Shown piece by piece: positions 9,806 to 64,000 of a stretch of DNA of 64,000 nucleotides. The stretch lies in contig DATEVU010000134.1 of NCBI GenBank assembly GCA_035258345.1, forward strand, positions 340-64,339. The letters are read 5' to 3'. Position numbers and translations under genes: made by a program. Numbering within the stretch: the first letter of the stretch is position 1; every line of letters begins with the position of its first letter. The notes under the pieces are model-generated. The model made no database searches. It was not told the DNA's origin and worked only from the letters and a program-made list of their open reading frames with translations. The stretch comes from Bacteroidales bacterium (lineage in GTDB: Bacteria; Bacteroidota; Bacteroidia; Bacteroidales; UBA10428).

Positions 9806-10012
9806 ATTTTAAAACAATGTAATCCTCACCATGGGAACCCTTCGGGACTTTTGGGAGGAGGGCAAAGATAATGATCTTTTCAGGTTTTTTAAAAAAAAGG
9901 TTCAAAAAAAGACCATGGATAACAGGCATCGATTCAGTAAATTAGAACATAAATCAGCATTTTAATCGAAAAAGAGTACTATTTTTGAGACGCATTAATC
10001 CTAAGCGTTGCT

Positions 10013-11482
10013 ATGACTAACCTGGAGAATTATTTTGAACCGTTCAGAAGTAATATTATCGGAAATGATGCTTGTTTTGATTCTCCTTATGGCAGGATAA
10101 AGATCCATTATCTCGACTGGGTTGCCGGTGGCAGGTTGTACCGGCCTATTGAAGACCGGATAACTAATGTTTTCGGTCCTTTTGTTGCCAATACACATAC
10201 GGAAACCAGCGAAACAGGGAACAGAATGACACTGTGCTATCATTATGCACACGAGTATATTAAGAAACATGTAAACGCAGGGCCCAATGACGTTATAATA
10301 ACGGCCGGTTCGGGAATGACCAGTGTTGTGAATAAACTGCAGCGAATCCTCAGCCTGAGAACCGGCAACAAAAGGGTTAAACCGGAGTGCATCGATGTCA
10401 GGGATCGTCCGGTTATTTTCATTACACATATGGAGCATCACTCCAACCAGACTTCATGGTACGAGACGATGGCTGATGTTGTAATGATCCCCCCAGATGG
10501 ATCGCTGCTGGTTGATATCAAAGCACTCCGCTCAGCATTGCTACGGTACGCCGACCGCAAATTCAAGATCGGAGCATTTACAGCATGTTCCAATGTAACC
10601 GGCATCATTACCCCCTATCATGATATGGCCAGGGTAATGCACGAAAACCAGGGAATTTGTTTTGTGGATTTTGCCGCTTCTGCACCCTATGTGAAGATGG
10701 ATATGCATCCGCCCGATCCCCTGGAAAAACTTGATGCACTCTATTTCTCCCCGCACAAATTTCTGGGAGGACCCGGATCATCAGGGGTGCTGATTTTTGA
10801 TTCTTCACTGTACAATTCCGAAATTCCCGATGACCCCGGTGGTGGTACGGTTGACTGGACCAACCCCTGGGGGGAGTACAAGTATGTGAACGACATTGAA
10901 GCGCGCGAAGATGGAGGAACTCCGGGCTTTTTACAGGCCATTCGGGCAGCATTCGCCATGGAACTGAAGGATAAAATGGGGGTCGAACGCATTATGCAAC
11001 GCGAAGGGGAACTCGTGAATATTACCATGAAGGGCCTTCGTGAGATTCCCGGGATCAATATCCTTGCCGGCAATACACAGCATCGCCTTGGGATCATTTC
11101 GTTCTACCACAAAGATATACATTTCAACCTGATAGTCAAGTTGCTTAGTGACCGGTTTGGAATCCAGGTAAGAGGAGGGTGCGCCTGCGCAGGCACCTAC
11201 GGGCATTTTCTGCTGGAAGTGAGTTATGACAGGTCACACCAGATAACCGAAAAGATCAACCATGGTGATCTGTCAGAGAAGCCCGGCTGGGTCAGGGTAT
11301 CCCTGCATCCGGTTATGAAGGATGAAGAGGTGTCCTATTTTCTCGATTCATTAAAAGAGGTGGTCAGGAATCATTCGATATGGAAAAAAGATTATATTTA
11401 TAATCCAAATAAAAATGAGTTCGAACATCGCTCTAAATTAGAATCCAGGGCCGACTGGCTTCAGGAGTGGTTTTCATTATGA
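10013..11482 (+). CDS. Class-V-fold PLP-dependent aminotransferase / cysteine-desulfurase-like enzyme
   Basis: 489 aa. ...ITHMEHHSNQTSW...FTACSNVTGI...DFAASAPYV...LYFSPHKFLGGPGSSGVLIF (Lys in the SPHK motif). Confidence 0.8.
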   Translation: MTNLENYFEPFRSNIIGNDACFDSPYGRIKIHYLDWVAGGRLYRPIEDRITNVFGPFVANTHTETSETGNRMTLCYHYAHEYIKKHVNAGPNDVIITAGSGMTSVVNKLQRILSLRTGNKRVKPECIDVRDRPVIFITHMEHHSNQTSWYETMADVVMIPPDGSLLVDIKALRSALLRYADRKFKIGAFTACSNVTGIITPYHDMARVMHENQGICFVDFAASAPYVKMDMHPPDPLEKLDALYFSPHKFLGGPGSSGVLIFDSSLYNSEIPDDPGGGTVDWTNPWGEYKYVNDIEAREDGGTPGFLQAIRAAFAMELKDKMGVERIMQREGELVNITMKGLREIPGINILAGNTQHRLGIISFYHKDIHFNLIVKLLSDRFGIQVRGGCACAGTYGHFLLEVSYDRSHQITEKINHGDLSEKPGWVRVSLHPVMKDEEVSYFLDSLKEVVRNHSIWKKDYIYNPNKNEFEHRSKLESRADWLQEWFSL

Positions 11483-12705
11483 TTAAAACCGATCCCATGA
11501 GTTTACTTGAAGTGACTGATAAGAAAACCAGGGAAGAATTTCTGGAAGTGCCCAAGTTGCTTTACCGCAATGATCCGAACTGGGCATGTCCGCTGGATAT
11601 GGAAATTGAAAATATTTTTAATCCGAAAAAGAACTCCGGTTTTCAACACGGGGACGCCCGACGCTGGGTTATAAAGGACGAACAGGGAAGACTAACCGGA
11701 AGGATCGCCGCTTTTTATGATAACAACAAAGCCCATCATAACCGGCAACCTACAGGAGGAACCGGCTTCTTTGAATGCATAAACGATCAGGACGCAGCAA
11801 ACCTGCTGTTCGATGCCGCTAAAAATTGGCTGATCTCGCAGGGTATGCAGGCCATGGACGGTCCCATTAATTTCGGTGAAAATTTCATGAACTGGGGATT
11901 GCTTACCGAAGGATTTGTACCCCAAGGGTATGGCATGCCCTACAATTTTCCTTATTATAAATTGCTCTTTGAGAACTACGGTTTCAAAACCTATTTTAAG
12001 CAATACAGCTTCCACGACAATTTCAGCCTTCCATACCCTGAACATATGCGCAGTTTCGGTGAGCGTTTCTGGAAGAAACCGGCATATTCCTTCAAACACC
12101 TGGAAATGAAGCACGCCGAAAAATACCTGCGCGATATGGTAGCCATGTACAATGAAATATGGGCAGAATTTCTGGAAAATTATACCCCGCTGAAATTCGA
12201 AGATCTTTACCAGATATTTCTGGACGCCAAAGCTATACTGAATGAGAAGTTCATATGGTTCGGCTACCACAACAACAAACCTATCGGATTTCTGATTGTT
12301 TTTCCTGACATGAACCAGGTGCTGAGAAAGCTGAAAAACGGCAAACTCAACCTGTTGAATATTATCAGACTGCTGTACTATAAAAAGCGTGCCATAACCC
12401 GGGGACGGCTATTGCTATCCGGCGTTATTCCCGAGTTTCAGCGAATTGGCGCTGTCGGGGGAATTTATCTCAAGCTTGTGGATACCATGCGCGAAGAGGG
12501 AATGGAGGAACTTGAACTTTCGTGGGTGGGCGATTATAATCTTACGGTTAATAAAATGTATAGTCAGTTTGGTGCTACCAAGGAAAAAACCCATACGACT
12601 TACCGTTGTCTTTTTGATCCGACGGCACCCTACGAAAGATTCAACAACCTGAGCCGGAAATTTGCAAAGGACAGGAAAAATGAACAGAATAATTTTGATG
12701 TTTAA
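11479..12705 (+). CDS. Large GNAT-like N-acyltransferase family protein (function unknown)
   Basis: About 408 aa. The C-terminal part GFLIVFPD...VIPEFQRIGAVGGIYLKLV...LELSWVGDYN resembles a GNAT acyl-CoA-binding core. Its ATG at 11479 overlaps the upstream TGA (ATGA). Confidence 0.5.
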   Translation: MIKTDPMSLLEVTDKKTREEFLEVPKLLYRNDPNWACPLDMEIENIFNPKKNSGFQHGDARRWVIKDEQGRLTGRIAAFYDNNKAHHNRQPTGGTGFFECINDQDAANLLFDAAKNWLISQGMQAMDGPINFGENFMNWGLLTEGFVPQGYGMPYNFPYYKLLFENYGFKTYFKQYSFHDNFSLPYPEHMRSFGERFWKKPAYSFKHLEMKHAEKYLRDMVAMYNEIWAEFLENYTPLKFEDLYQIFLDAKAILNEKFIWFGYHNNKPIGFLIVFPDMNQVLRKLKNGKLNLLNIIRLLYYKKRAITRGRLLLSGVIPEFQRIGAVGGIYLKLVDTMREEGMEELELSWVGDYNLTVNKMYSQFGATKEKTHTTYRCLFDPTAPYERFNNLSRKFAKDRKNEQNNFDV

Positions 12706-12716
12706 AATGGATTACG

Positions 12717-12724
12717 TATTTTTG
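12717..12724 (+). promoter_or_regulatory. -7 promoter box (TAnnTTTG) upstream of rpmE2
   Basis: TATTTTTG, 38 nt upstream of the ATG at 12762. Confidence 0.45.
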
Positions 12725-12761
12725 CATCCCGTTTTGAATTTTTTGATAAAAGAAAACTACG

Positions 12762-13034
12762 ATGAAAAAAGGAATACATCCCGATAGTTACAGGCTGGTA
12801 GCCTTCAGGGATATGTCAAACGGCCATACCTTTCTTACCCGTTCAACTGCACACTCAAGGGAGACTGTTGTGCTGGAAGATGGCAAGGAATATCCGCTGA
12901 TCAAGATTGAAATCTCCAATACATCCCATCCTTTCTATACCGGTAAGATGAAGCTGGTTGATACAGCAGGACGTGTTGATAAGTTCATGAACCGTTACAA
13001 GAGCCATTTCGACAAGAAAAAGAAGCAGGAATAG
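12762..13034 (+). CDS. rpmE2: 50S ribosomal protein L31, type B
   Basis: 90 aa. [29 protein letters not shown]...[20 protein letters not shown]. It has no CxxC zinc motif. Confidence 0.93.
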
Positions 13035-13057
13035 TTGGCGTTAAAAAAGATATTCGG

Positions 13058-13090
13058 CTCCGTTTTCAATACAAAGAAAACGGAGTTTTT
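13058..13090 (+). terminator. Rho-independent terminator after rpmE2
   Basis: CTCCGTTTTC-aatacaaa-GAAAACGGAG followed by TTTTT. Confidence 0.85.
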
Positions 13091-13153
13091 ATATTTTTAT
13101 ATGCAGTATCCAACCTTGCCGGATAGTCAGGGAGATTACCAAGTTATTTTGAG

Positions 13154-13161
13154 TATATTTG
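13154..13161 (+). promoter_or_regulatory. -7 promoter box (TAnnTTTG)
   Basis: TATATTTG, 22 nt upstream of the ATG at 13183. Confidence 0.45.
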
Positions 13162-13182
13162 CATAATAATCAAGCAAGTCCG

Positions 13183-14388
13183 ATGAATGGTACCCCGCGT
13201 AATTTTGTATTGTTCGATGATCAGGCGCGCGGTCATTTGTTGCCGTTTACTTTTATCAGACCGGTGGCAGAGCTACGGGTGGGCATACTGACCATCAGGG
13301 AAAAATGGGAAAAGTGGACCGGGCATTCTTTTACACATGTCACCGAAGACTATCTCGAGGAAAAGTATCCCCTTATCATAGGTGAAGAAAACCTGATTAT
13401 CAACGGATCAGTTATACCCAATCGTGATCTGGTAGATGAAATATCAGCCCTGGTTTGCGGTGAAATGCTGGTGAAAGATAACATCCTGATCGCCGGATGT
13501 CTGGATCAGCCTTCCCTTGAGACCTTTGACCTGTCGGTTCCCACCGGATATACACAAAAACAGGCACAATCAACTTTCAACCGGATCTCAAAACCGTGGC
13601 ATATTTTCAGATTGAACGGAGAAGTGCTTACGGCTGATTTCGGTTTGGTGACTGCGGGCAGGACCTCATCTCTTATCAGTTCAACCAACCACCTCATCGA
13701 GCCCGGGAATATTTTTGCAGAAGAAGGTGCCAGGTTAGAATACTGTACCATAAACGCATCCGGAGGCCCGGTTTACATAGGGAGAAATGCTGAAATTATG
13801 GAAGGCTCCTCGATCCGCGGCCCCTTTGCATTGTGCGAAGGAGGTCAGGTTAAGATGGGAGCAAGAATTTATGGTGCAACAACAATTGGTCCTTACTCCC
13901 GGGTAGGAGGCGAGGTTACAAATTCGGTAATATTCGATTATTCAAACAAAGTACATGAAGGCTACGTGGGCAATTCGGTAATAGGAGATTGGTGTAATAT
14001 AGGTGCCGGCTCCAACACATCGAACCTGAAAAACAATTATGCCCTGGTTAAGGTGTGGAATTATGTGACCAGTAAAGCTGAAGATACAGGTTTGCAGTTT
14101 TGCGGCCTGATGATGGGAGACTATTCCCGCTGTGGCATAAGTACCATGTTCAATACGGGTTCGGTTGTAGGGGTCTCGACCAATATTTTCGGATCGGGTT
14201 TCCCGGGTAATTTTGTTCCGTCGTTTTCCTGGGGAGGTGCTGCCGGTTTTGAAACATACTGGTTGATTAAGGCAATAGAAACGCTTGAGAAAGCCATGAT
14301 ATCACGAAACAGGGTAATGTCTGAATCCGAGCGGAAAATTATCAGCCGTGTTTTTGTGGTAACCGACCGTTACCGCAAATCGGTTTGA
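13183..14388 (+). CDS. GlmU-family putative sugar nucleotidyltransferase/acyltransferase (left-handed beta-helix)
   Basis: NFVLFDDQARGHLLPFTFIRPVAELRVGILTIREKW, then hexapeptide-repeat-like segments (IGRNAEIMEGSSIRG...VGGEVTNSVIFDYSNKVHEGYVGNSVIGDWCNIGAGS). The track start at 13159 is a TTG; I prefer the ATG at 13183. Confidence 0.7.
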   Translation: MNGTPRNFVLFDDQARGHLLPFTFIRPVAELRVGILTIREKWEKWTGHSFTHVTEDYLEEKYPLIIGEENLIINGSVIPNRDLVDEISALVCGEMLVKDNILIAGCLDQPSLETFDLSVPTGYTQKQAQSTFNRISKPWHIFRLNGEVLTADFGLVTAGRTSSLISSTNHLIEPGNIFAEEGARLEYCTINASGGPVYIGRNAEIMEGSSIRGPFALCEGGQVKMGARIYGATTIGPYSRVGGEVTNSVIFDYSNKVHEGYVGNSVIGDWCNIGAGSNTSNLKNNYALVKVWNYVTSKAEDTGLQFCGLMMGDYSRCGISTMFNTGSVVGVSTNIFGSGFPGNFVPSFSWGGAAGFETYWLIKAIETLEKAMISRNRVMSESERKIISRVFVVTDRYRKSV

Positions 14389-14522
14389 TGGCTTAAATGC
14401 ATTTGGTTATTAAGAGTTTCCGGCATGGCATGAAGATTGACATTTATAATGGCTGAACTTTATTCAACACCGGGCTGACATTTTGTCTATTTATTTGTTG
14501 TTTTCAGGAGGAATCTATATTT

Positions 14523-16979
14523 ATGAGCTATTTGCAGGAAAAAAAAATGAGTGGGTTATTTCTTTCATCAACCGTCAACGAAGATACCGACTTCATTCCC
14601 CTGATCTCGGAAGAGGACGAGGAGAGCATTACGATGTCACATGTTCCTGAAACACTTCCAATCCTTCCCTTAAGAAATACAGTCCTGTTCCCGGGAGTAA
14701 TAATTCCTATCACCGTAGGACGCGACAAATCCATGAAACTGGTCAGGGATATTTACCAGAAAAGCAAGATAATGGGAACCGTTGCGCAAAGAGATCCCAA
14801 TATGGATGAACCCGGACCGGATGACATGTTTAATGTAGGTACGGTAGCCCAGTTGCTCAGGATTCTTGAAATGCCTGACGGAACTACTTCTGTGATCATA
14901 CAGGGGAAAAGACGTTTCAAGATCAATGAAGTTGTATCCACCGATCCTTATTACCTGGCGAAGGTAAGTCCGCTGGATGACGTAAAACCACGCCGCAAGG
15001 ACCATGAATTCGAGGCTATTGTCGGATCGCTCAAGGATCTTTCCCTGAAAATAATCAAACTTTCCAGCAATATTCCGCCCGAAACCTCTTTTGCAGTAAA
15101 GAATATCGAGAGTTCTTCATTCCTGATAAACTTTATCAGTTCGAACAGCGATATCCGGATGTCGGAAAAGCAGCACCTCCTGGAACAAAGCAACCTGAAG
15201 AAAAGGGCAACTTCCCTGTTGCAGTACCTTGCACGGGAAGTGCAGATGCTTGAACTGAAGCACGATATCCAGACAAAGGTCAAGATTGACATGGACCAGC
15301 AGCAGCGTGAGTACTTCCTGCATCAGCAGATGAAAACCATACAGGATGAGTTGGGCGGAAACCCGGTTGAACAGGAGATTGAAGAACTTAAGGCCAGGGC
15401 TAAAAGGAAAAAATGGAAAAAAGAGGTTGCCACAACCTTCGGCAAGGAGGTAGATAAGCTTACCAGGTTAAATCCGGCTACCGGTGAGTATTCTGTACAA
15501 CTGAACTATCTGCAGACTTTGCTGGAATTACCCTGGAACTATTACACAAAAGACAACTTCGACCTGAACAGGGCCCAGCGCATACTCGATAAAGATCATT
15601 TCGGCCTGGAGAAGGTAAAAGAAAGGATCATTGAACATCTCGCCGTGCTCAAGCTTAAAGGTGATATGAAATCCCCGATAATTTGCCTGTATGGTCCTCC
15701 GGGTGTCGGTAAAACATCGCTCGGGAAATCGGTTGCCAAAGCCCTTAACCGGAAGTATATCAGGATGTCCCTTGGCGGGTTGCATGATGAGGCGGAGATC
15801 CGCGGGCACCGCAAAACCTATATCGGGGCTATGCCGGGAAGAATCATTCAAAGCCTGAGGAAAACAAAATCCGCCAATCCGGTTTTTGTGCTGGATGAAA
15901 TTGACAAAGTAGGCCGCGATTTTCATGGCGATCCTGCTTCCGCACTTCTTGAGGTGCTTGATCCAGAGCAGAACAGTGCTTTTTATGACAATTTCATTGA
16001 ACTTGAATTTGACCTGTCCAGGGTGTTGTTTATTGCTACCGCAAACACCACCAGCACTATCAATCCTGCCCTGGTAGACCGGATGGAACTCATCAATGTA
16101 AGCGGTTATATTATCGAGGAAAAAGTTGAAATTGCCCGCAGGCATCTGGTCCCAAAGGAGCTTAAGAATCATGGTCTAACATCACGAGCGCTTACGCTGT
16201 CGAAGAAAATGCTGGAATACCTGGTAGAGAATTATACCCGTGAGTCCGGGGTCCGGGAGCTGGACAAAACATTGGCCAAGATCGTCCGTGTAATTGCGAG
16301 GAAAGTTGCCATGGAGGAATCCTATAATAAAAACGTTACCGTGAATGATATTGAGACAATCCTCGGGGCACCCAAATACCTCCAGGATAAATATCAGGGT
16401 AACGACATAGCCGGAGTAGTCACCGGGCTTGCATGGACAGCTTCCGGCGGCGAGATACTTTTTGTGGAAACAAGTCTGAGTAAAGGCAAAGGCACGCTTA
16501 CCCTCACCGGTAACCTGGGCGATGTAATGAAGGAATCGGCTGTTATTGCCCTCGAGTATATCAAATCGCATGGCGAGATACTTGGATTATTACCTGAAAC
16601 TTTTGAAAACTGGAATGTGCATGTGCATGTTCCCGAAGGTGCCATTCCCAAGGACGGCCCTTCGGCAGGTATTACCATGGCCACTTCCATTGCTTCGGCC
16701 ATGACACGGCGTAAAGTAAAAAAGCAGGCTGCCATGACAGGTGAAATTACACTCCGGGGAAAGGTATTGCCTGTAGGCGGAATTAAGGAAAAAATACTGG
16801 CCGCAAAACGTGCCAATATCCTGGAAATAATCCTGTCGGAGGAGAACCGCAGGGATATAGCGGAAATCAACGGGATTTACCTGAAAGGACTTACCTTCCA
16901 TTATGTGAACAATATCATGCAGGTATTTGATCGGGCATTGCTGCAGGAAAAAGTTGAAAAACCGGTAATAATCGCATAA
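14523..16979 (+). CDS. lon: ATP-dependent Lon protease (endopeptidase La)
   Basis: 818 aa. [23 protein letters not shown]; Walker [10 protein letters not shown]; catalytic [14 protein letters not shown]...K. Confidence 0.97.
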
Positions 16980-41510: not shown

Positions 41511-42095
41511 ATGCAGGTCAGAATCCTCGATATCATTTCCGTGTTTATGGTGCTGTTTGCCGTGATCGATATTACAGGTGCCATTCCCTATATTCTGGAA
41601 CTAAAAAGGAAATCCGGTGATATTGAAGCCGGGAAAGCAACATTGGTTGCCTATTTTATTCTGGTTCTTTTCCTGTTCATCGGAGAACCATTTCTTAAAT
41701 TATTCGGAGTTGATATCAATTCTTTTGCTATTGCAGGATCATTTGTACTGTTGTTCCTGGGATTGGAAATGGTGCTTGGAATAGAATTCTTCAAATTTGA
41801 ATCGATAAAACACACTTCCATTTTTCCGCTGGCATTCCCGCTTATTGCCGGCGCCGGCAGTATGACAACCATTATTTCACTGAAAGCCGCATATGATATG
41901 TGGACGATTTTTATTGCCCTGAGTTTGAATATGATCCTGGTTTACTTTGTGTTACGAGCCACCAAAATAGTGGAAAGGATTCTCGGCCCCACCGGAATTC
42001 TTATTCTTACGAAAGTTTTTGGCATAATTCTGCTTGCCATAGCCATCCGGTTGTTTTTATCCAATACCGGAATCAAGTTGCCAAATGCACCATAA
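41511..42095 (+). CDS. MarC-family (UPF0056) integral membrane protein
   Basis: 194 aa with 6 TM segments. FAVIDITGAIPYIL...FPLAFPLIAGAGSMTT. Confidence 0.8.
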   Translation: MQVRILDIISVFMVLFAVIDITGAIPYILELKRKSGDIEAGKATLVAYFILVLFLFIGEPFLKLFGVDINSFAIAGSFVLLFLGLEMVLGIEFFKFESIKHTSIFPLAFPLIAGAGSMTTIISLKAAYDMWTIFIALSLNMILVYFVLRATKIVERILGPTGILILTKVFGIILLAIAIRLFLSNTGIKLPNAP

Positions 42096-42564
42096 GATCA
42101 TTTTATATACCGATGGAGCCGCCAGTGGTAATCCTGGTCCCGGCGGATTTGGGGTTGTGCTGATCTCAGGACGCCACCGGAAGGAGATTTCGCAGGGATA
42201 CCGTCACACCACAAACAACCGCATGGAACTCCTGGCGGTCATTACCGGACTGGAGGCATTGAAAGCCGGGAACTGCGAAGTCACAGTGTACACCGATTCG
42301 AAGTATGTGGCTGATTCTGTTGAGAAACGATGGGTGTTTGCCTGGGAGAAAAAAAAGTTTGCAGGTAAAAAAAACCCGGACCTTTGGAGGCGTTTTCTTG
42401 CCATTTACAGGAAGCACCAGGTAAGGTTTGTTTGGATCAAAGGTCATGCTGATATACCTGAAAATGAGCGGTGTGACAGGCTTGCGGTTGAAGCCTCCCT
42501 GAAACCCGACCTGCCCGAAGATGAGGGATATTCCGGCAATGGATCAACACAGGCAATTCCATAG
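42085..42564 (+). CDS. rnhA: Ribonuclease HI
   Basis: 159 aa. ILYTDGAASGNPGPGGFGVVL...NNRMELLAVITGLEAL...VYTDSKYV...WIKGHADIPENERCDRLA. Confidence 0.95.
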   Translation: MHHKIILYTDGAASGNPGPGGFGVVLISGRHRKEISQGYRHTTNNRMELLAVITGLEALKAGNCEVTVYTDSKYVADSVEKRWVFAWEKKKFAGKKNPDLWRRFLAIYRKHQVRFVWIKGHADIPENERCDRLAVEASLKPDLPEDEGYSGNGSTQAIP

Positions 42565-42672
42565 CCTGTATATAAGTGCAAAGAAAGTTTCCTGATTTGT
42601 AACCATCTGCATTGATAATACGTTCTATTATTTGGCCGGGATAACAGCTGTAAACCGGACCAGATTGAATAT

Positions 42673-43215
42673 ATGATTAAATCCCAACCAGTTTTGGAAA
42701 ATAAAAAGATTATTGATTTTAGTGGCACCATTCAATATGAGACCATTGGTGAATTAATTCATTTATTTAAAAATCAGGTTCATACACTGGGTGTTCAGAC
42801 TGGAACTTATAAAAAATTACTGCTTGTTATGATCGAGTCGCTTGAAAACATCATGAAATACAGTGAATGTCCGGCCGTTACTGCGGAAACCGGAAAGACT
42901 TTTTTTCCGGATTTCTCCATCCGGAAAGACATGAACAGGTATATTATTTCTTCATCAAACCCCATGCAGAAGCAAAATATTTCCCCCCTGGAAAAAAAAC
43001 TGAACCATCTGAACACGATGAATCAGCAGGATTTAAAAAATTTCTACAAGGAAACAATTACCAACGGACAATTCACAGAATATGGAGGTGCCGGGCTGGG
43101 ACTGATTGAGATGGCAAAAATTTCGGGTAAACGGATGGAATATCAATTCCTGCCAATAGATGATCTCTATGCCCGTTTTAGCCTGATGATTACAATTGAT
43201 GATGGTTCTTCCTGA
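42673..43215 (+). CDS. GHKL-ATPase-fold SiaB-like / anti-sigma-type protein kinase (DUF6272-like)
   Basis: 180 aa. N-box-like ESLENIMKYS and G-box GGAGLGLIEMAK. No SiaA, SiaC or STAS partner is visible nearby. Confidence 0.55.
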   Translation: MIKSQPVLENKKIIDFSGTIQYETIGELIHLFKNQVHTLGVQTGTYKKLLLVMIESLENIMKYSECPAVTAETGKTFFPDFSIRKDMNRYIISSSNPMQKQNISPLEKKLNHLNTMNQQDLKNFYKETITNGQFTEYGGAGLGLIEMAKISGKRMEYQFLPIDDLYARFSLMITIDDGSS

Positions 43216-43232
43216 CGGTAAGGATCAATCCA

Positions 43233-43640
43233 TTATCTCACCGCAATTTTGTTGTCGCGAAGCACGATATTCCATTCCACGAGTACGTTCAGGGCATGCT
43301 TTAGTTCACGGCGGCAATCATCTTCTGACAGATAATACTTTCTGGAAAATGTATCCAGGATAAACTCCATACGCTGTTTGCGATACGCAGCCATCAGAAG
43401 ATCAGCATAAAAATCGGTAAATTCATGCCTTATATCCTGTCCTTCCGTGTTCCTGGCAAATACGATCACTTCTCCCGATGACATGCGTTTCAATTTGCAT
43501 TCGGGATTTAGCTTGATAGTACCGGCACTAAATGAATCGCGAGGAGGCACGGCTTTTGCAGGAAATATTAAAACCAACGACAAAAAGAGCATACTTGCGA
43601 TTCTGATGATGCTCAGGTTGTATGTGGAATTGGTTTTCAT
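43233..43640 (-). CDS. Hypothetical exported protein
   Basis: 135 aa. N-terminal signal/TM segment (IIRIASMLFLSLVLIFPAKA). The C-terminal roughly 90 aa loosely resemble a PqqD/RRE-type winged helix by eye (very tentative). Confidence 0.45.
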   Translation of the reverse strand: MKTNSTYNLSIIRIASMLFLSLVLIFPAKAVPPRDSFSAGTIKLNPECKLKRMSSGEVIVFARNTEGQDIRHEFTDFYADLLMAAYRKQRMEFILDTFSRKYYLSEDDCRRELKHALNVLVEWNIVLRDNKIAVR

Positions 43641-43846
43641 AAGGTATGTTTTATAAGAAGAACAGTCAATTAGAATAAAGGTTCATATCAATAAGGAAAC
43701 GTATTTTTTTGTGATCTATTGCAGGGTGATATTTGTTACCTGTAAAGGTATGAATATACCTGCATTTAGTCAACTATAATTTTAGGATATTTTGTTGCAA
43801 ATAAACTAAAAATGAAATAGTTTAAACATGAATTTTCAGACTTTAT

Positions 43847-45142
43847 ATGAAGGTGATCATATTACATTATCATTTGAATCCGGGAGGTGTTACACGTATC
43901 GTCGAATCCCAGGTCAAAGGTTTGGAAACTGTTGCCGGTGATATGGAAATCACGATACTCAGCGGACATGAAGGAGCCACCCCTGGTATTTCCGGAGTGT
44001 CTGCCGGGGTGCATACTTCCTTGTATTATCAGTTTCCTGAAAGTCAACATATCAACCAGCATGAGGAAAGGCGGATAATTGTTTCCTATATTAAAGGGCA
44101 CCTCTCACCGGATACGATCCTTCACTGTCATAACGCAAACCTGGGGAAGAATCCTGCATTTTCGGCTGCCGTATTTCAACTCGCTGGGGAAGGGTATGGG
44201 ATCGTCAACCATTGCCATGATTTTCCCGAGGACCGTCCGGAAAATTTTGCTTTCCTGGAAAAGGTTATTGCCGGATCGTTTGGAATACGCCTGGAAACAC
44301 TATTGTACCCCAACCTCCCCCGGTATCATTTTATTACCCTGAACAGCTGTGATCATAAACGGATATTGCAGCACGGTGTTCCTGCAGAGCGGATTCACCT
44401 GCTGCCAAATCCTGTTGTAATGCATAAAATGACCGGGAATGGCAAGTACGAAAAGGACAGGTATGATATAACCAGAGCACTTGAACTGGATGCATCAAAA
44501 AAAATCTGCACCTATCCGGTAAGGGCTATCAGGCGTAAGAATATCGGGGAATTTTTGCTGCTGGCAGCTGTTTTTGAAAAGCAAGCCAGTTTTATTCTTA
44601 CACAACCACCTAAAAATCCCGCTGAATTGCCCGGGTATGCAAGGTGGAAGTACTTTAGTAAATTAATCGGACTTGATGTGAAATATGAAGCCGGAGAAGC
44701 CGTTAATCATGAAATGCTGATCCGTGTATCTGATTTTTGCATTACCACAAGTTACCGCGAAGGTTTTGGCATGACTTACCTCGAACCCTGGATCACAGGT
44801 ACCCCCGTGATCGGAAGGAACCTGGAGTGCATTACAGAAGACCTGAAACAGTTTGGTCTTGTTTTTCCGGGACTTTACAGCGCAATTTGGATAAAAACAC
44901 ATTCAGGATTTACTGATTTCAAGGATCTTACACCTGAAGAGCAGGAAAAGCAAATAGCCGCCGTAAAAGAAAATCCGGTCGAATGCAACAGGCTGCTGTC
45001 GGATAATCCGTTCCTGAACTCCCTGCTTGCACCGGTCTCCCCAGAAATCATTAACAAAAACAGGGGTATCATTGAAAAAAAATTTACGGTAAAGAAATAT
45101 GGAGAAAAATTATTTGCAATATATAAAGCAATTTCTGGCTGA
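43847..45142 (+). CDS. GT-B fold retaining-type glycosyltransferase (GT4-like), paralogue 1
   Basis: 431 aa. MKVIILHYHLNPGGVTRIVESQ; HCHDFPEDRPENF; EX7E motif EGFGMTYLE followed by GTPVIG. Confidence 0.75.
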   Translation: MKVIILHYHLNPGGVTRIVESQVKGLETVAGDMEITILSGHEGATPGISGVSAGVHTSLYYQFPESQHINQHEERRIIVSYIKGHLSPDTILHCHNANLGKNPAFSAAVFQLAGEGYGIVNHCHDFPEDRPENFAFLEKVIAGSFGIRLETLLYPNLPRYHFITLNSCDHKRILQHGVPAERIHLLPNPVVMHKMTGNGKYEKDRYDITRALELDASKKICTYPVRAIRRKNIGEFLLLAAVFEKQASFILTQPPKNPAELPGYARWKYFSKLIGLDVKYEAGEAVNHEMLIRVSDFCITTSYREGFGMTYLEPWITGTPVIGRNLECITEDLKQFGLVFPGLYSAIWIKTHSGFTDFKDLTPEEQEKQIAAVKENPVECNRLLSDNPFLNSLLAPVSPEIINKNRGIIEKKFTVKKYGEKLFAIYKAISG

Positions 45143-46019
45143 TGTTCCGGAAATGAAACCGCTTCCCACCTTGCTGAAACCCTTTGTAAAGAAGGATACT
45201 CTCATTAGGGCAGTATTTTTTGACGTTTACGGAACCTTGCTGATCTCGGCATCGGGAGACATCGATGAGTCGGTGATCTCGACTGAGAACCTGAAGAGCG
45301 CCTTTGATGCCGCGGGTATCAGGCTTGTTGATTACAACCATGATCCCAGGCAGGTGCTCTCTGAAATTCTGGAGGAATTCAAACAGGCGATAAGAAATTT
45401 TCACAATATCCGGAAAACCGAGGATCTGCCTTATCCCGAAGTGGATATCCTGAAGGTATGGGGTGAGATACTGGCTGGCAATCAGCAACGAAACAGGGTA
45501 TATCTAAACGGTCCGCCTTGCATCAGCTGCTTTGTTTTTGTTTTTGAAGTGCTGAGCAACAGGATATATCCAATGCCGGGAATGAAGGAGGTTATAAACC
45601 ACCTTGCCGGTAACGGGTATCCGCTGGGCATCATTTCCAATGCACAGTTTTATACCCCGGTTATCCTGAACTTTTTTATGCATGACAACATTGAAGAATC
45701 CGATGTTGTGGTTCCTTTTGATCCTGATCTGACCGTGTTTTCATATAAGCACATGCGATCAAAGCCGGATTCCATGCTTTTTGATCTGCCAAAAAAAATA
45801 TGTATACAAAAATTCGGTATTTATCCCGACGAGGTATTGTTCGTTGGCAATGATATGTTCCGGGATGTTTATCCGGCCCGCCTGGCAGGATTTAAAACTG
45901 CCTTGTTTGCAGGGGACGCAAAATCGCTGAGGTTAAGACAGGACAAACCCGAATTGAAAAAGATCGTGCCGGATTATATCATTACCGATCTGCGACAACT
46001 CCTTAACATTATGGAATAA
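45099..46019 (+). CDS. HAD-superfamily hydrolase with a haloacid-dehalogenase-type motif I (DxYGT)
   Basis: 306 aa. Motif I FFDVYGTLL, motif II IISNAQ, motif III K in SKPD, motif IV GNDMFRD. The ATG at 45099 overlaps the upstream gene by 44 nt. An alternative ATG at 45153 lies 11 nt past that gene's stop. Confidence 0.75.
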   Translation: MEKNYLQYIKQFLADVPEMKPLPTLLKPFVKKDTLIRAVFFDVYGTLLISASGDIDESVISTENLKSAFDAAGIRLVDYNHDPRQVLSEILEEFKQAIRNFHNIRKTEDLPYPEVDILKVWGEILAGNQQRNRVYLNGPPCISCFVFVFEVLSNRIYPMPGMKEVINHLAGNGYPLGIISNAQFYTPVILNFFMHDNIEESDVVVPFDPDLTVFSYKHMRSKPDSMLFDLPKKICIQKFGIYPDEVLFVGNDMFRDVYPARLAGFKTALFAGDAKSLRLRQDKPELKKIVPDYIITDLRQLLNIME

Positions 46020-47467
46020 TGGATATATCACACCTCAATTACGGTATAATACATTCGCTGATTGGCAAAAACGATGGTGTTTCTATCGTGATCGACCAAT
46101 CGGTGAATGCCATGGTCAAGGATTTTGGAATACCGCTGGGCAATATCTATTTTCTGGGCGCTCATTCATCACCCCGGTTCAATGCTGAAACCCACGAAAT
46201 TTTCTGGCATAAGAACGAAGCCCATAAAACCATAATCCGGAAGTTCAATGAACCCGCAGATGAGTCATTGGACAAGCTTATCCATGAAAGCGCGCTGGTG
46301 GCGAAAGAAATCATCGCCGATTTTGTTAAACGCAACAACATTGATATTATTTTCGCACACAATATTTCACATCCTTACAATTTCATCACGGCTGTAGGCC
46401 TTGGATATTATATCGAAGAATTACGCCGGCAACGTATTATATGGCCGAAAGTGCTGGTATGGTGGCATGATTCTTATTTTGAACGGGAGCAGTTTTCACA
46501 TCCCAACGTGATCATTCAGAAATACCTGAAGTACCTGCCCGGAATTAATGTCGACGGAATTGTCTTCATAAATTCCTCCCAACCGGAACTGGCAAAACGG
46601 GTATTTGAGCATTACGGGGTAGAAAGGCTGGATGAATATTTCCGTGATCGTACTGTGATCATCCCCAATACCCATGATATAACCTGGGATTGGAAGGAGC
46701 GAGACTGGAATGGAAATTCCCTGATCTATCCCAGGCAAGACAGTTACAATCAGTCGTTTTTCAAGGATATCGGCCTTGCAGAAATGGTTGAATCCAGGGG
46801 CTATACCGTGGATGATACCGTGATCTTGTTGCAGCATACCCGAATTGTACCCCGGAAGAAAATTGAACTCGCCATAGACCTGGCTTTTGAGTTGCTCGGT
46901 AAATTTCAGCAGGAAAAACTTAATAAGTGCATCGCCTTGCTGATAAGCGGACACTCCGGTGATGAACAGGCAAAATACAAGGAATTTCTGGCGGAGTATT
47001 TCCATATGAAAAAAGAAGCTGCACCTTCTGCCCCGGTATTTATGATATTTGGTGAAAACCATATCCTTTCTCATCGTGATATCATTGTGGATAAGAAATA
47101 CTACAATTTTTTTGAGATACCTTCCATTATAGCAGCTCACGGTGGGATCGGCACATATTTCAGTGAGGTTGAAGGGTTTGGAAATAATCTGCTGGAGATA
47201 CTGGCTGCCGGGTTACCGGCAATTATTAATAAATACAGTGTATATAAAACCGATCTGGAGCCCCTTGGATTTGATCTGCCTTTTACCGAGGACAATATCC
47301 TCGACCCTTCCCTGATCGATACAACCTTTAGGCTGGCTGCTGATATCCGCTATCGGAACAAACTGGTGAGACATAATCTGAGCATTCTGTCGGAAATGCT
47401 GGCACACCGTATCATAGCCGAATCGCTTGCACCATTGATCAATAATATTTTCACCAGGGGTCTATAA
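46019..47467 (+). CDS. GT-B fold retaining-type glycosyltransferase (GT4-like), paralogue 2
   Basis: 482 aa. GIIHSLIGKNDGVSIVIDQS; WWHDSYFEREQF; EX7E motif EGFGNNLLE followed by GLPAII. Its start shares 1 nt with the upstream stop (TAATG). Confidence 0.75.
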   Translation: MDISHLNYGIIHSLIGKNDGVSIVIDQSVNAMVKDFGIPLGNIYFLGAHSSPRFNAETHEIFWHKNEAHKTIIRKFNEPADESLDKLIHESALVAKEIIADFVKRNNIDIIFAHNISHPYNFITAVGLGYYIEELRRQRIIWPKVLVWWHDSYFEREQFSHPNVIIQKYLKYLPGINVDGIVFINSSQPELAKRVFEHYGVERLDEYFRDRTVIIPNTHDITWDWKERDWNGNSLIYPRQDSYNQSFFKDIGLAEMVESRGYTVDDTVILLQHTRIVPRKKIELAIDLAFELLGKFQQEKLNKCIALLISGHSGDEQAKYKEFLAEYFHMKKEAAPSAPVFMIFGENHILSHRDIIVDKKYYNFFEIPSIIAAHGGIGTYFSEVEGFGNNLLEILAAGLPAIINKYSVYKTDLEPLGFDLPFTEDNILDPSLIDTTFRLAADIRYRNKLVRHNLSILSEMLAHRIIAESLAPLINNIFTRGL

Positions 47468-47485
47468 TGATATTAACCGCGGAGT

Positions 47486-49210
47486 ATGCAGCGCATGCAG
47501 AAGAATTCAGGCGATATTGGGTACGATGACTTTCCGGGTAGGATTGCCCGGCATTTGCAGGTCATTTATAAATCGGATTTCAGTGAAAGTACGGTTAACC
47601 GGATACTGGGAATAACAGGCAGGCATTACCCGGCTGTTTCGCCATGGGATGAAAAGGATGTTGTACTGATCACCTACGGGAACTCGTTTTTATTGCCAGG
47701 GGAAAGACCTTTGAAAACTCTGCACCGTTTCCTGTCCGCGAAACTCAATGATATTATCTCCTGTGTTCACATTTTGCCTTTTTTCCCCTGCACATCCGAT
47801 GACGGATTTGCTGTGAGCGATTTCTCTGCGGTTAACCCGGAGCTCGGCACCTGGGAAGATGTTACCGAAATCGGAAAGAAATTCAGCCTGATTTTTGACC
47901 TGGTGATCAACCATGTTTCAGCCAGCCATTCCTGGTTCAGGGGATTTCTATCGGGTAAGATGCCCTGGAGCCATTATTTTATTGAAGCAGACCCTATGGC
48001 CGATTACAGTAAGGTTACAAGACCCAGAAGCACACCCTTGTTTACTGATTTTGTGACAAAAAACGGGAAGAGATCCATCTGGACCACTTTCAGTGCGGAT
48101 CAGGTTGATCTGAATTTCTCGAATCCTGAGGTTTTGCTGGAAATGATCGCTGTACTGTGTGATTATATCGCACGGGGCGCCAGGATTATCAGGCTTGATG
48201 CCATCGCTTTCCTGTGGAAAGAAAAAAACACAACCTGTCTTCACCTCCCCGAGACACATGAGATTGTTAAATTGCTTCGCGATATTGCCACTTTTATAAG
48301 ACCCGGTGTAATTGTACTTACCGAGACAAATGTTCCCAATAAAGAAAACTGGAGTTATTTCGGAAATGGTGATGAAGCGCATATGGTATATCAATTCAGT
48401 CTTCCTCCATTGCTGCTGCACGCGTTATTTTCAGGCACGTCAACCTATCTGACCAACTGGGCATCGGAAATACCAGGGACCGGAAAGGAACAGACTTTCC
48501 TGAACTATACAGCGTCACACGATGGTATCGGTGTTCGTCCACTCGAAGGAATCCTGCCGGATGCCGAACTGAGATCACTCCTTGCCGGAATGACCGGCTT
48601 AGGCGGCAGGATCAGCCAGAAACGTAACCCGGACGGATCAGACAGCCCGTATGAGATCAATATTACCTACCTGGATGCCATGAAAGGAACAAGATCGGGG
48701 ATTGACGGCCTGCAGGAGCAAAGGTTTATGTGCTCCCAGGCTACCATGATGGCCATGAAGGGTATACCGGCCTTTTACATTCTCAGCTTGCTGGGTACGT
48801 CCAATTATCACGAAGGTTTTGCTGTAACCGGCATTTCCAGGAGCATTAACCGGCGACGTTGGAATGAGACAGAGATCAACGGGTTGTTGTCCGAAGATAC
48901 CCCTCACAAGCGTGTTTTTGAAGCATTAGGAAAACTGATCCTTATCCGGAAACAGTTCATGGCTTTTCATCCCGACAGTCTGCAGGAAATTCTCAGGCCG
49001 GGTGATCCGTTTTTTGCCTTTAAACGGTATGATCCCAAGTCAGGGAATGAAATATTCTGTATATCAAATATGTCTTCGGGAAAAGCAATATTGAGAACCG
49101 ATCAGTTAACCGGTTACACGGCTGGCAACGATTTAATTACATCCGGCAGATGCTTTTCATCACCGGAAGAAATATCCTTTGAACCGTACCAGGTCAGATG
49201 GCTGCTTTAA
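47486..49210 (+). CDS. GH13_18 sucrose-phosphorylase-family sugar phosphorylase, long form (YcjM/glucosylglycerate-phosphorylase-like)
   Basis: 574 aa. HILPFFPCTSDDGFAVSDF; nucleophile region IRLDAIAFLWKE; acid/base LTETNVP; SHDGIGVRP; SPYEINITYLDA. Confidence 0.85.
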   Translation: MQRMQKNSGDIGYDDFPGRIARHLQVIYKSDFSESTVNRILGITGRHYPAVSPWDEKDVVLITYGNSFLLPGERPLKTLHRFLSAKLNDIISCVHILPFFPCTSDDGFAVSDFSAVNPELGTWEDVTEIGKKFSLIFDLVINHVSASHSWFRGFLSGKMPWSHYFIEADPMADYSKVTRPRSTPLFTDFVTKNGKRSIWTTFSADQVDLNFSNPEVLLEMIAVLCDYIARGARIIRLDAIAFLWKEKNTTCLHLPETHEIVKLLRDIATFIRPGVIVLTETNVPNKENWSYFGNGDEAHMVYQFSLPPLLLHALFSGTSTYLTNWASEIPGTGKEQTFLNYTASHDGIGVRPLEGILPDAELRSLLAGMTGLGGRISQKRNPDGSDSPYEINITYLDAMKGTRSGIDGLQEQRFMCSQATMMAMKGIPAFYILSLLGTSNYHEGFAVTGISRSINRRRWNETEINGLLSEDTPHKRVFEALGKLILIRKQFMAFHPDSLQEILRPGDPFFAFKRYDPKSGNEIFCISNMSSGKAILRTDQLTGYTAGNDLITSGRCFSSPEEISFEPYQVRWLL

Positions 49211-49216
49211 TACCCG

Positions 49217-49324
49217 TTACCTTTTATTCTGCTGTTTTTCCTTTTTTGCTGCCCGTTTTTCTTTCAGGGACATTTTGGCAACCTTTTTTTCCTTATCTTT
49301 TGTTGGCGCTTTCTCTTTTACCAT
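49217..49324 (-). CDS. Small lysine-rich basic protein (35 aa), not in the ORF track
   Basis: My own translation: MVKEKAPTKDKEKKVAKMSLKEKRAAKKEKQQNKR* (16 of 35 residues are K or R). An exact TAAATTTG -7 box lies on the minus strand at 49354-49347, 22 nt upstream of the ATG. Confidence 0.45.
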   Translation of the reverse strand: MVKEKAPTKDKEKKVAKMSLKEKRAAKKEKQQNKR

Positions 49325-49516
49325 GGTTCAGATTTTATGGTTTATACAAATTTAATAAAGTTTTTGGCGATTTTGCACCCGGCAAAGGATAAAAACCGCT
49401 TAAATTCATCACTTTCACGAAATAATACAAGAGATGCTTATACTACCAGATAAATGGTATCATCCTGTACTTTACTTTCTGCATAAAAGCAGGTTTTTCA
49501 TGCCAATGAAGGACTA

Positions 49517-50380
49517 TTAAAACTGATGAAATGCATCGGAAATAAATGAAAGTACGTCGGGCAGGGATTCCCGCCAGTAAGTCCAGGTATGCCCCCCATT
49601 ACGGATACGGAACTCATGGGGGATCTCTTTTTTACGCATGGCAATGTGCACCAGTGAATTTCCTTCGTATAAAAAGTCGTCATCCCCACAATCAATGAAC
49701 CACCTGACTGCTGTTTTCTGGTCATCCTGTAAGCTGTCGAGCAGGGGAATTACGCTGTGCCGTCTGTAGTAGGTTTCTATTTCCGCTTCGGTCACATCAT
49801 TCATTCCACTCTGTTCAAAACGGCTTTTTACCTGTTGCAGAGAAAGTGCGCCGGTGTATGCACTAAGCGGACAAGCTGAAGAGAACATTTCAGGATGACG
49901 AAGCGCATACATGAATGTGCCGCCACCACCCATCGACAAACCTGAAATGGCCCGGTACCGTTTTTCGCCTTTTATCCGGTATTGTTTTTCAACAAAGGGG
50001 ACAAACTCCTCAAAGAAAAAATCCTCATACCGCCATTCTCCTTTAATATCATTAAAATAGCCACGCTGACCGGTATTGGCATCGGGCATAACGATGATCA
50101 TGGGTGTGGCCTTCCCATGCTTAATAGCTTCATCGGCAATGTGAAGTACCTCTCCGAACTGTACCCAGCCGGTCTGGTCATCACCGCTGCCATGCAGCAG
50201 GTAAAGCACGGGATAGCTCCGTAGCGAGGTTTCATAGTCGGGAGGAAGATAAATGGCATATTTGCGTTCCATTTTGAGGATCTTGCTGGTCATGAACAGG
50301 TTATCCAGAACCTTGCCGGTTTGGCCCGTCAGCAATGCGGGAATTATCATGGCCAGGGCAAATGATAAAAGTTTTCTCAT
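49517..50380 (-). CDS. Secreted alpha/beta-hydrolase esterase (putative esterase / esterase D family)
   Basis: 287 aa. Signal peptide; YPVLYLLHGSGDDQTGW; nucleophile elbow GLSMGGGG. Confidence 0.8.
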   Translation of the reverse strand: MRKLLSFALAMIIPALLTGQTGKVLDNLFMTSKILKMERKYAIYLPPDYETSLRSYPVLYLLHGSGDDQTGWVQFGEVLHIADEAIKHGKATPMIIVMPDANTGQRGYFNDIKGEWRYEDFFFEEFVPFVEKQYRIKGEKRYRAISGLSMGGGGTFMYALRHPEMFSSACPLSAYTGALSLQQVKSRFEQSGMNDVTEAEIETYYRRHSVIPLLDSLQDDQKTAVRWFIDCGDDDFLYEGNSLVHIAMRKKEIPHEFRIRNGGHTWTYWRESLPDVLSFISDAFHQF

Positions 50381-50398
50381 GGTTAAAGGGTTAGGGTA

Positions 50399-50458
50399 GT
50401 GAAAAATTAAAAGTGAAAACTAAAAGTGAAAAGGTAACAGGACTGTAAGTATAGTGAA
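50399..50458 (+). repeat. Array of four GTGAA words (spacing 14/13/28)
   Basis: GTGAA starts at 50399, 50413, 50426 and 50454. The array is complementary in sense to the TTCAC array at 50480-50521. Confidence 0.75.
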
Positions 50459-50479
50459 TAATGACAAAAAATGCAATTC

Positions 50480-50521
50480 TTCACTATTCACTGTTCACCG
50501 TTCACTATTCACTATTCACTA
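50480..50521 (+). repeat. Six exact-period heptads TTCACYR overlapping the stop codon of the upstream (minus-strand) gene
   Basis: TTCAC starts at 50480, 50487, 50494, 50501, 50508 and 50515. The stop codon of the lipoprotein gene is at 50512-50514. Confidence 0.85.
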
Positions 50522-63657: not shown

Positions 63658-64000
63658 ATGAAAATCCTGATCTGTCCCGATAAATTCAAGGAATGCCTGA
63701 CTTCCGGAAGTGTTGCTGTGCATATCCGGAACGGAATACGCAAGGTTTTTCCGGAGGCGGAATACAAAATACTGCCATTGGCCGACGGCGGGGAAGGAAC
63801 CGCGGAAGCCCTTACTGAAGCTACCCGGGGCAGGATTGAAAATGCCCGTGTGCATGACCCGCTGATGCGGCCCATCAGTTCATTTTTCGGTGTTTCAGGT
63901 GACGGCAAAACAGCGATTATAGAAATGGCGTCAGCATCGGGACTGGCGCTCCTGAAACCGGTAGAGAGAAATCCCATGGTGGCATCCACATACGGGACCG
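63658..64000 (+). CDS. glxK: Glycerate kinase; the 5' part runs off the window end
   Basis: My own translation: MKILICPDKFKECLTSGSVAVHIRNGIRKVFPEAEYKILPLADGGEGTAEALTEATRG...TAIIEMASASGLALL...NPMVASTYGT. The minus-strand track ORFs here are antisense shadows. Confidence 0.85.
   Translation, partial: MKILICPDKFKECLTSGSVAVHIRNGIRKVFPEAEYKILPLADGGEGTAEALTEATRGRIENARVHDPLMRPISSFFGVSGDGKTAIIEMASASGLALLKPVERNPMVASTYGT

Follow-up and report, generated by a model that had tools for sequence, protein, structure and literature searches.

Mannosylglucosylglycerate (MGG) is a compatible solute detected so far only in Petrotoga and in the marine planctomycete Rhodopirellula baltica, whose glycosyl-glycerate solutes replace glutamate under nitrogen scarcity. 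R. baltica makes MGG via GpgS, the GT4 glycosyltransferase MggA and MggB, a novel 36-kDa phosphatase that resembles members of the haloacid dehalogenase (HAD) superfamily (PMC3736172, Cunha et al. 2013). The genes for these proteins are rb1005, rb5546 and rb12347, respectively, and mggB lies in an operon-like structure together with homologues of MggS and of sucrose phosphorylase (PMC3736172). Characterised MggA proteins are NP_866758 of R. baltica and YP_001568185 of Petrotoga mobilis. Here we compare the published systems with a four-gene cluster in a 64,000-nucleotide stretch of contig DATEVU010000134.1 (hereafter the window), which comes from a metagenome-assembled genome (MAG) of an uncultured Bacteroidales. 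The cluster encodes two glycosyltransferases (GT1 and GT2), a HAD-superfamily hydrolase between them, and a GH13_18 phosphorylase. We consider it likely to be the Bacteroidales version of an MGG-type compatible-solute set, reduced to an operon of mggA-like, mggB-like, mggS-related and ggaP genes, as the published MGG genes correspond to it in gene content and order, in partner genes and in their spread across taxa.

Other described systems contain parts of this set. Coraliomargarita has a gpgS-mggA-mggB arrangement, while Desulfococcus and Spirochaeta carry mggA-mggB pairs; both mggA and mggB counted as extremely rare in 2013, when some 12 homologues of each were known (PMC3736172). As proposed for the window, Petrotoga mobilis and Thermotoga maritima have a GT4 enzyme in each of two routes, GpgS-MggA-phosphatase and GgS-MggS, and the two glycosyltransferases of Petrotoga were explained by parallel routes to one product (PMC3736172). 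In Petrotoga the phosphatase has no relationship to the HAD protein of the R. baltica type and, unlike in the window, the cluster has no GH13_18 phosphorylase (PMC3736172). A phosphorylase-primed route was also hypothesised by Cunha et al. but never demonstrated (PMC3736172).

The window resembles R. baltica (PMC3736172) most closely in its parts: an MggA-like GT4 enzyme, an unusual HAD protein of about 300-320 aa, an MggS-related GT4 enzyme and a GH13_18 phosphorylase. It differs in how they are arranged, since mggA and gpgS are scattered in R. baltica, whereas the mggA-like gene of the window forms part of the operon, with its end overlapping that of HAD. Furthermore, GT2 is a longer protein of a divergent subfamily, with 482 aa and not about 425 aa, and the host, in place of a marine planctomycete, is a Bacteroidales bacterium that is uncultured and of anaerobic type. 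Compared with the classical GpgS (GT81) plus GpgP pathway, most relatives of the window carry gpgS inside the cluster, while the window has none.

Organization of the cluster

The features discussed below are as follows.

GT1, 43847-45142, + strand, 431 aa: divergent GT4-like retaining GT-B glycosyltransferase, MggA-like candidate
HAD, 45099-46019, + strand, 306 aa: HAD-superfamily hydrolase, MggB-like candidate
GT2, 46019-47467, + strand, 482 aa: long-form GT4-like GT-B glycosyltransferase, distant relative of MggS
GH13 enzyme (gene 4), 47486-49210, + strand, 574 aa: predicted GH13_18 glucosylglycerate phosphorylase of the YcjM type
Upstream intergenic region, 43641-43846, 206 bp: presumed promoter, between GT1 and a divergent 135-aa open reading frame (ORF) without known function
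Glycerate kinase gene, 5' part, 63664-64000, + strand: runs off the end of the window; 385 aa in the source contig

An initial annotation of this DNA had reported four tightly packed, co-directional genes, and the ORFs agree with this; independent ENA and JGI gene calls on four independent contigs predict all four with identical starts. The junctions, read from the sequence, were likewise as reported, with a 44-nt overlap between GT1 and HAD, the 1-nt overlap TAATG between HAD and GT2 at 46019, an 18-nt gap between GT2 and gene 4, and the 206-bp region upstream. Only the gap given for an alternative HAD start needed correction: an ATG at 45153 would leave 10 nt, not 11. All of the motifs quoted for the glycosyltransferases and the phosphorylase (EGFGMTYLE, EGFGNNLLE, HDFPEDRPENF, HDSYFEREQF, RLDA, TETN and SHDGIG) are present in the window ORFs.

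Gene 4 encodes a predicted glucosylglycerate phosphorylase

Gene 4, which matches Pfam Alpha-amylase, aligned with the characterised E. coli YcjM at 41% identity over residues 19-573 (432 bits, E = 2e-150). Its best solved relatives in the PDB were sucrose phosphorylase at 172.7 bits, glucosylglycerol phosphorylase (GGoP) at 160.5 bits and sucrose-6F-phosphate phosphorylase (SPP) at 140.7 bits. The GH13 catalytic residues, which comprise the nucleophile Asp of RLDA, the acid/base Glu and the transition-state Asp of SHDGIG, are found in the segments IIRLDAIAF, LTETNVP and ASHDGIG and are all unchanged in the alignment with YcjM.

Two fingerprints have been described for glucosylglycerate phosphorylases (GGaPs), namely (T/S)ETN at beta-5 and a Glu that replaces Gln in loop A (PMC7178133). 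Gene 4 has both: TETN at residues 279-282, and a loop A that reads SPYEINITY, in which E390 of PYEIN aligns with the PYEIN of YcjM. Gene 4 shares these features with the GGaP clade, to which the enzymes of E. coli (YcjM), Meiothermus silvanus and Spirochaeta thermophila belong (PMC7178133). They are also frequent among full-length, cluster-linked homologues of gene 4, where TETN is present in 40/40 and PYExN in 34/40. Because of the YcjM homology and the TETN and PYEIN fingerprints, gene 4 was filed as a GH13_18 GGaP (EC 2.4.1.352), predicted to interconvert glucosylglycerate (GG) plus Pi and alpha-glucose 1-phosphate (Glc1P) plus D-glycerate; the class was assigned by bit scores and motifs rather than from a full GH13_18 phylogeny.

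A sucrose phosphorylase identity was considered and rejected. The score against the sucrose phosphorylase equivalog TIGR03852 was 193.9, below the cut-off of 334.4, the bit score to the best sucrose phosphorylase was far under that to YcjM, and the sucrose-phosphorylase loop-A motif N(L/V)D(I/L/V)YQ is absent, its place being taken by SPYEINITY. The initial annotation had already placed gene 4 in the long-form YcjM branch, not among plain sucrose phosphorylases, and these scores bear it out.

The specificity of GGaPs was deduced from gene context, with glycerate kinase, GpgS and GpgP as frequent neighbours (PMC7178133), and the association with gpgS and glycerate kinase is shared by the relatives of gene 4. 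YcjM, in contrast, is found in a catabolic and ABC-transporter cluster, whereas gene 4 closes an operon that also encodes two Leloir glycosyltransferases.

GT1 and HAD are candidates for the MggA and MggB steps

The HAD protein scored above the cut-off of Pfam PF00702 (39.1 bits). Its family is a coherent one, made up of proteins of about 300 residues, which an exhaustive search at E <= 1e-30 resolved into 629 clusters at 50% identity; cluster look-ups of 20 representatives returned only the name ‘HAD family hydrolase’. We take the window protein to have no relatives among the known types of GpgP. Its identity to the HAD proteins of Pirellulaceae and Opitutales clusters is 35-40% (E about 1e-61 to 1e-64), and it is 35-37% identical to those from the Pirellulaceae operons that pair HAD with an MggS-like protein and GGaP. 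The nucleophile D42, motif II S180, motif III K222 and motif IV GND252xxxD256 are unchanged in the family, and motif I reads D42-V-Y44-G-T (residues 42-46, positions 45222-45236), within a family pattern of D-[IV]-Y-G-T. Its size, about 35 kDa, compares with the 36 kDa reported for R. baltica MggB. The phyla and gene neighbourhoods of the family match those of MggB, which makes the protein an MggB-like candidate, whose predicted role is that of a phosphatase acting on mannosylglucosyl-3-phosphoglycerate. In three family members (P0452, P0504 and P0500) the HAD portion is preceded by an N-terminal extension of 70-145 residues.

GT1 gave Pfam matches (GT4 and Glycos_transf_1) that were all under the cut-offs, and no NCBIfam matches. 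Its AlphaFold2 model (predicted local distance difference test, pLDDT, 91.2) has a GT-B fold, and the EX7E motif reads EGFGMTYLE. Alignments with proteins from other phyla ran end to end: GT1-like proteins of Opitutales, Pirellulaceae and Desulfobacteraceae were 27-31% identical (E = 1e-43 to 1e-58), and the glycosyltransferase encoded between gpgS and HAD in Opitutales and Pirellulaceae loci matched the whole of GT1 at 28-31% identity (E = 1e-45 to 1e-58). Cunha et al. gave the name mggA to the gene in this position, in the order gpgS-mggA-mggB of Coraliomargarita (PMC3736172). A C-terminal extension of about 50 residues, present in these presumptive MggA proteins, is missing from GT1.

A natural fusion was found in protein P0509 (827 aa, from an ENA metagenome contig of 5.9 kb), in which residues 1-483 are GT1-like and residues 539-825 correspond to HAD. 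Such a fusion would be expected if a synthase and its phosphatase acted on consecutive steps, and together with the 44-nt gene overlap it points to functional coupling of GT1 and HAD. We regard GT1 as an MggA-like candidate, a putative glycosyl-glucosyl-3-phosphoglycerate synthase. In one Pirellulaceae MAG (locus L075, 8483-9800) the GT1-like gene is split into ORFs of 186 and 287 aa, a possible case of frameshift, pseudogene formation or misassembly.

GT2 belongs to a long-form subfamily related to MggS

GT2 is also predicted to have a GT-B fold (AlphaFold2 model, pLDDT 84.0), with EGFGNNLLE as its EX7E motif and Pfam matches that lie under the cut-offs. Its sole meaningful curated match was NCBIfam NF041101, the MggS family; the second NCBIfam family gave E = 0.0065. 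Many of its homologues are named ‘mannosylglucosylglycerate synthase’ by JGI. Long-form GT2 proteins from Victivallales, Clostridia and Fibrobacteria share 50-61% identity with it (E 1e-177 or lower). Short MggS-like proteins of Planctomycetes and Opitutales (421-437 aa), which are paired with GGaP, are 25-29% identical to it (E = 1e-24 to 1e-29), and one of these, from Bythopirellula, matched NF041101 over its full length with 246 bits. GT2 represents a related long-form subfamily without a characterised member and is no MggS equivalog.

The two glycosyltransferases had been described as mutually similar, which overstates the case. By pairwise BLASTP only the EX7E region of GT1 and GT2 aligned (E = 0.005). 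Their family profiles did align over the full length, with 376 columns at 19% identity (hhalign E = 1.3e-3, probability 18%), and several motif pairs were in register: HYHLNPGGV with HSLIGKNDGV, HDFPEDRP with HDSYFER, and RAIRRKN with RIVPRKK. PDB sequence and profile searches gave no informative relative for GT1, GT2 or HAD. By structure, the nearest solved relatives of both glycosyltransferase models were the retaining GT4/GT5 GT-B enzymes GlgM, sucrose-phosphate synthase, MshA, BshA and TreT, the same enzymes that Foldseek returned as neighbours of the GT1 model; these enzymes act on small phosphorylated or carboxylate acceptors. Membrane segments are lacking in both proteins, and so are lipid-carrier-related neighbours. 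Sucrose-phosphate synthase, trehalose synthase, GgpS and GpgS (GT81) were tried as identities and rejected, as matches were sub-threshold or were weak and limited to the surroundings of EX7E; the initial annotation, too, had set both proteins apart from sucrose-phosphate synthase, GgpS and GpgS (GT81).

The gene set recurs across phyla

To survey related loci, a HAD profile built from 45 diverse members was searched against species-representative genomes, and the best 80 of 518 loci were analysed. All are from MAGs, and R. baltica and Coraliomargarita akajimensis are not among them. The ORFs of each locus were searched with the four window proteins and also clustered de novo. The hosts included Bacteroidales, Prolixibacteraceae, Draconibacterium, Victivallales, Lentisphaerae, one Clostridia MAG and Fibrobacteria, as well as Pirellulaceae, Bythopirellula, Planctomycetaceae, Opitutales, Puniceicoccaceae, Spirochaetes, Desulfobacterales, SAR324 and Gammaproteobacteria. 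The phylum distribution of the HAD family essentially reproduces that published for MggB (PMC3736172).

The GT1 family was present in 63 of the 80 loci and stood directly 5' of HAD in 62-63 of them. GT2 or an MggS-like protein was encoded in 48/80, GGaP in 44/80 and gpgS in 43/80, and the full order GT1-HAD-GT2-(gpgS)-GGaP was conserved in 32/80. The four-gene arrangement is far beyond chance. The gene order is kept in other Bacteroidota; the commonest order in Bacteroidales was GT1-HAD-GT2-gpgS-GGaP(-glxK), and independent gene calls on a 6.7-Mb contig (L086) gave GT1-HAD-GT2-421aa-GGaP-Gly_kinase. Opitutales-type loci (e.g. L061, L080 and L084) read M20-gpgS-GT1like-HAD with MggSlike-GGaP close by, two Pirellulaceae loci (L057 and L075) read GT1like-HAD-MggSlike-GGaP(-gpgS), and Desulfobacterales loci carried GT1like-HAD alone. 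The window GGaP is 41-56% identical to the GGaPs of related clusters (E 1e-133 or lower), with 44-49% for the loci whose neighbourhoods match the published ones and 44-47% for the two Pirellulaceae loci.

Three homologue searches with the window proteins returned only close Bacteroidales relatives among the matches listed, and homologues are named ‘hypothetical protein’, ‘glycosyltransferase family 4 protein’ or ‘HAD family hydrolase’ in their sources. We found no description of this cluster in Bacteroidota in the searchable literature, a scope that leaves most subscription journals outside. No transporter recurred in the cluster neighbourhoods among the loci. An M20-type amidohydrolase-like gene (~390 aa, in 14/80 loci) lies directly 5' of the short-type gpgS in non-Bacteroidales clusters (L030, L033, L040, L046, L047, L053, L060, L061, L067, L069, L080 and L084).

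With 629 HAD clusters against the roughly 12 mggB homologues known in 2013, MGG-type clusters appear to be far more widespread than was thought. The compact mggA-mggB-mggS-like-(gpgS)-ggaP-(glxK) cluster is common in uncultured Bacteroidales and is also seen in Victivallales, Fibrobacteria, Opitutales, Planctomycetes and Desulfobacterales. Given this distribution, glycosyl-glycerate solutes, which are negatively charged, may occur widely in the communities of anaerobic sediments and digesters. As regards the window, the outcome is chiefly a functional annotation of four ‘hypothetical’ genes and not a new pathway.

GpgS and glycerate kinase

The gpgS genes of the related loci encode two types of protein. 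One, of about 330 aa, is of the PRK13915 type and scored over the NF010496 cut-off (388 bits; L030 and L080); the other, of about 404 aa, matched the methanogen-type NF040724 over its full length with 359-380 bits, under the 700-bit cut-off (L012, L043 and L057). Both types serve the same cluster. Glycerate kinase (511 bits, NCBIfam) was encoded in 16/80 loci, directly 3' of GGaP.

Cluster-internal gpgS and glxK are missing in the window lineage (the window and L006-L010) and in a few other loci. The window does carry a glycerate kinase gene 14.5 kb 3' of the cluster on the same strand, which was found by tblastn with the cluster-linked kinase of L012 (E = 8e-28). It scored 133.9 bits on TIGR00045 over the 111 aa inside the window, and the full gene in the source contig matches PF02595. 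We regard it as a possible accessory step outside the operon.

Proposed pathway

By analogy with the published systems, a pathway can be proposed that would start with GpgS, encoded in the clusters of most relatives, making glucosyl-3-phosphoglycerate (GPG) from NDP-glucose and 3-phosphoglycerate. GT1, as an MggA-like enzyme, would add a second hexose to GPG, by analogy mannose from GDP-mannose, and the translationally coupled, MggB-like HAD protein would take off the phosphate to give the free diglycosylglycerate. GT2, as an MggS-related enzyme, would most likely glycosylate unphosphorylated GG and so form a second, non-phosphorylating branch. The same logic operates in Petrotoga, where routes through phosphorylated intermediates or through free GG lead to one diglycosylglycerate. 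The GH13_18 enzyme would drain GG when the solute is unneeded, or make GG from Glc1P without a nucleotide sugar, and glycerate would re-enter glycolysis through the glycerate kinase encoded 14.5 kb away. MggS-like glycosyltransferases are conserved as partners of GGaP, which lends comparative support to the proposed non-phosphorylating route. A glucosylglycerate-derived diglycoside had been suggested as the probable product of the cluster, and the mapping onto the MGG genes agrees with this.

Several points weigh against assigning the cluster to MGG synthesis. The correspondence of GT1 and HAD to the published MggA and MggB (PMC3736172) is drawn from synteny, taxonomy and one NCBIfam model, and the substrates, donors, product and physiological direction of the phosphorylase are likewise predictions. 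The product may not be MGG, because sugar donors cannot be read from sequence. A search for gpgS across the window and ~75 kb of its source contig found none; the gene may lie elsewhere in the genome, as in R. baltica. The position two residues after the catalytic Asp of HAD, normally that of a general-acid Asp, is occupied by Tyr in 139 of 142 family representatives. Tyr at this position is typical of L-2-haloacid dehalogenases and not of HAD phosphatases. Yet the characterised family member is reported to be a phosphatase, and the family may consist of phosphatases that dispense with the canonical general acid. The specific activity of R. baltica MggB was very low, at 0.013 umol/min/mg (PMC3736172). 

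The glycosyltransferases raise further difficulties. The NF041101 match of GT2 reached 63 bits (E = 2e-17), where the cut-off is 640, and it covered residues 234-418 only, while an MggS equivalog would match over its full length at about 430 aa (GT2 has 482 aa). The R. baltica homologue of MggS was inactive in vitro on GG and GDP-mannose (PMC3736172). Finally, three loci from Prolixibacteraceae and Sunxiuqinia MAGs (L043, L044 and L049, at ~10000-15000) read HAD-gpgS-GGaP-glxK and have neither glycosyltransferase. This arrangement resembles plain GG synthesis and recycling as in the classical pathway; the HAD protein of these loci probably acts on GPG and the hosts probably make plain glucosylglycerate, so members of the HAD family may also dephosphorylate GPG.

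Alternative explanations

We next weighed a different product built on the same glucosylglycerate scaffold. GT1, GT2 or both could use a donor other than GDP-mannose, or could act in series, giving for example glucosylglucosylglycerate or a triglycosylglycerate. The inactivity of the R. baltica MggS homologue (PMC3736172) would fit such a scheme, as would the low identity of GT1 to presumptive MggA proteins (28-31%) and its lack of their C-terminal extension of ~50 residues. GT2, moreover, forms a separate 482-aa subfamily that shares 25-29% identity with the short MggS-like proteins and scores far under the MggS cut-off, and the pair of glycosyltransferases is kept in 48/80 loci though one would be enough for MGG. 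However, all members of these families that have been characterised produce mannosylglucosyl-3-phosphoglycerate (MGPG) or MGG (PMC3736172), the sequences hold no pointer to another donor, and the two glycosyltransferases of Petrotoga are parallel routes to the same product (PMC3736172). We consider this explanation unlikely.

A related possibility concerns the lineages without gpgS, such as that of the window. There GGaP might make GG from Glc1P and glycerate, and GT2 might extend it, in a phosphorylase-primed, nucleotide-sugar-saving route whose product may be other than MGG. We regard this variant as tentative and unlikely.

Both remaining explanations are much less probable than an MGG-type set. 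In one, the phosphorylase and the distant glycerate kinase would catabolise imported glucosylglycerate, while the glycosyltransferases and HAD would form an unrelated glycoconjugate or cell-envelope module. E. coli YcjM does lie in a catabolic and transport cluster, GGaP genes are present in many organisms without known GG accumulation (PMC7178133), and the JGI name for GT1 homologues is ‘glycosyltransferase involved in cell wall biosynthesis’. Yet the genes are separated by no more than 18 nt, with two pairs overlapping, and the GT-HAD-GT-GGaP linkage is kept across phyla, usually together with gpgS, which encodes a dedicated enzyme of the GG pathway; nor is there a recurrent transporter, a membrane segment in either glycosyltransferase or a lipid-carrier-related neighbour. 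We think this very improbable.

The initial annotation had instead read the cluster as a genuinely undescribed synthesis-and-recycling pathway, with an enzyme set differing from known routes and without characterised counterparts, and the absence of an NCBIfam match for GT1, the sub-threshold Pfam matches of both glycosyltransferases, the lack of a solved sequence relative for these proteins and HAD, and the generic or ‘hypothetical protein’ names in the sources could be taken that way, but the published MGG genes are matched in content, order, partners (gpgS, GGaP and glycerate kinase) and distribution among taxa, and we hold this reading to be hardly credible. The set maps onto MggA, MggB, the MggS homologue and the sucrose-phosphorylase homologue of R. 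baltica (PMC3736172). Because MGG gene sets (PMC3736172) and the association of GGaP with gpgS, gpgP and glycerate kinase (PMC7178133) have been published, the cluster matches a described pathway, an outcome that the initial annotation had itself named as contradicting its claim.

Neighbouring genes

A scan of the window for sigma-70 promoters and terminators gave counts no higher than the shuffled expectation, with a consensus that is in any case ill-suited to Bacteroidota, and an Rfam search of 42000-50500 gave zero matches. In Bacteroidales, a gene for a YfiR-like periplasmic protein (~170-200 aa; NF053591, 105 bits) is often found 3' of GGaP on the opposite strand (L006, L007, L009, L011, L013, L016, L018, L019, L021, L024 and L050). 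The window is without it and has an esterase gene at 49517-50380 in its place. Just upstream of the cluster are a gene for a SiaB-family protein kinase (DUF6272; NF038262, 120.9 bits) at 42673-43215 on the + strand and the 135-aa ORF at 43233-43640 on the - strand, which has no family match. Both are kept with the cluster in the closest relatives only (L006-L010).

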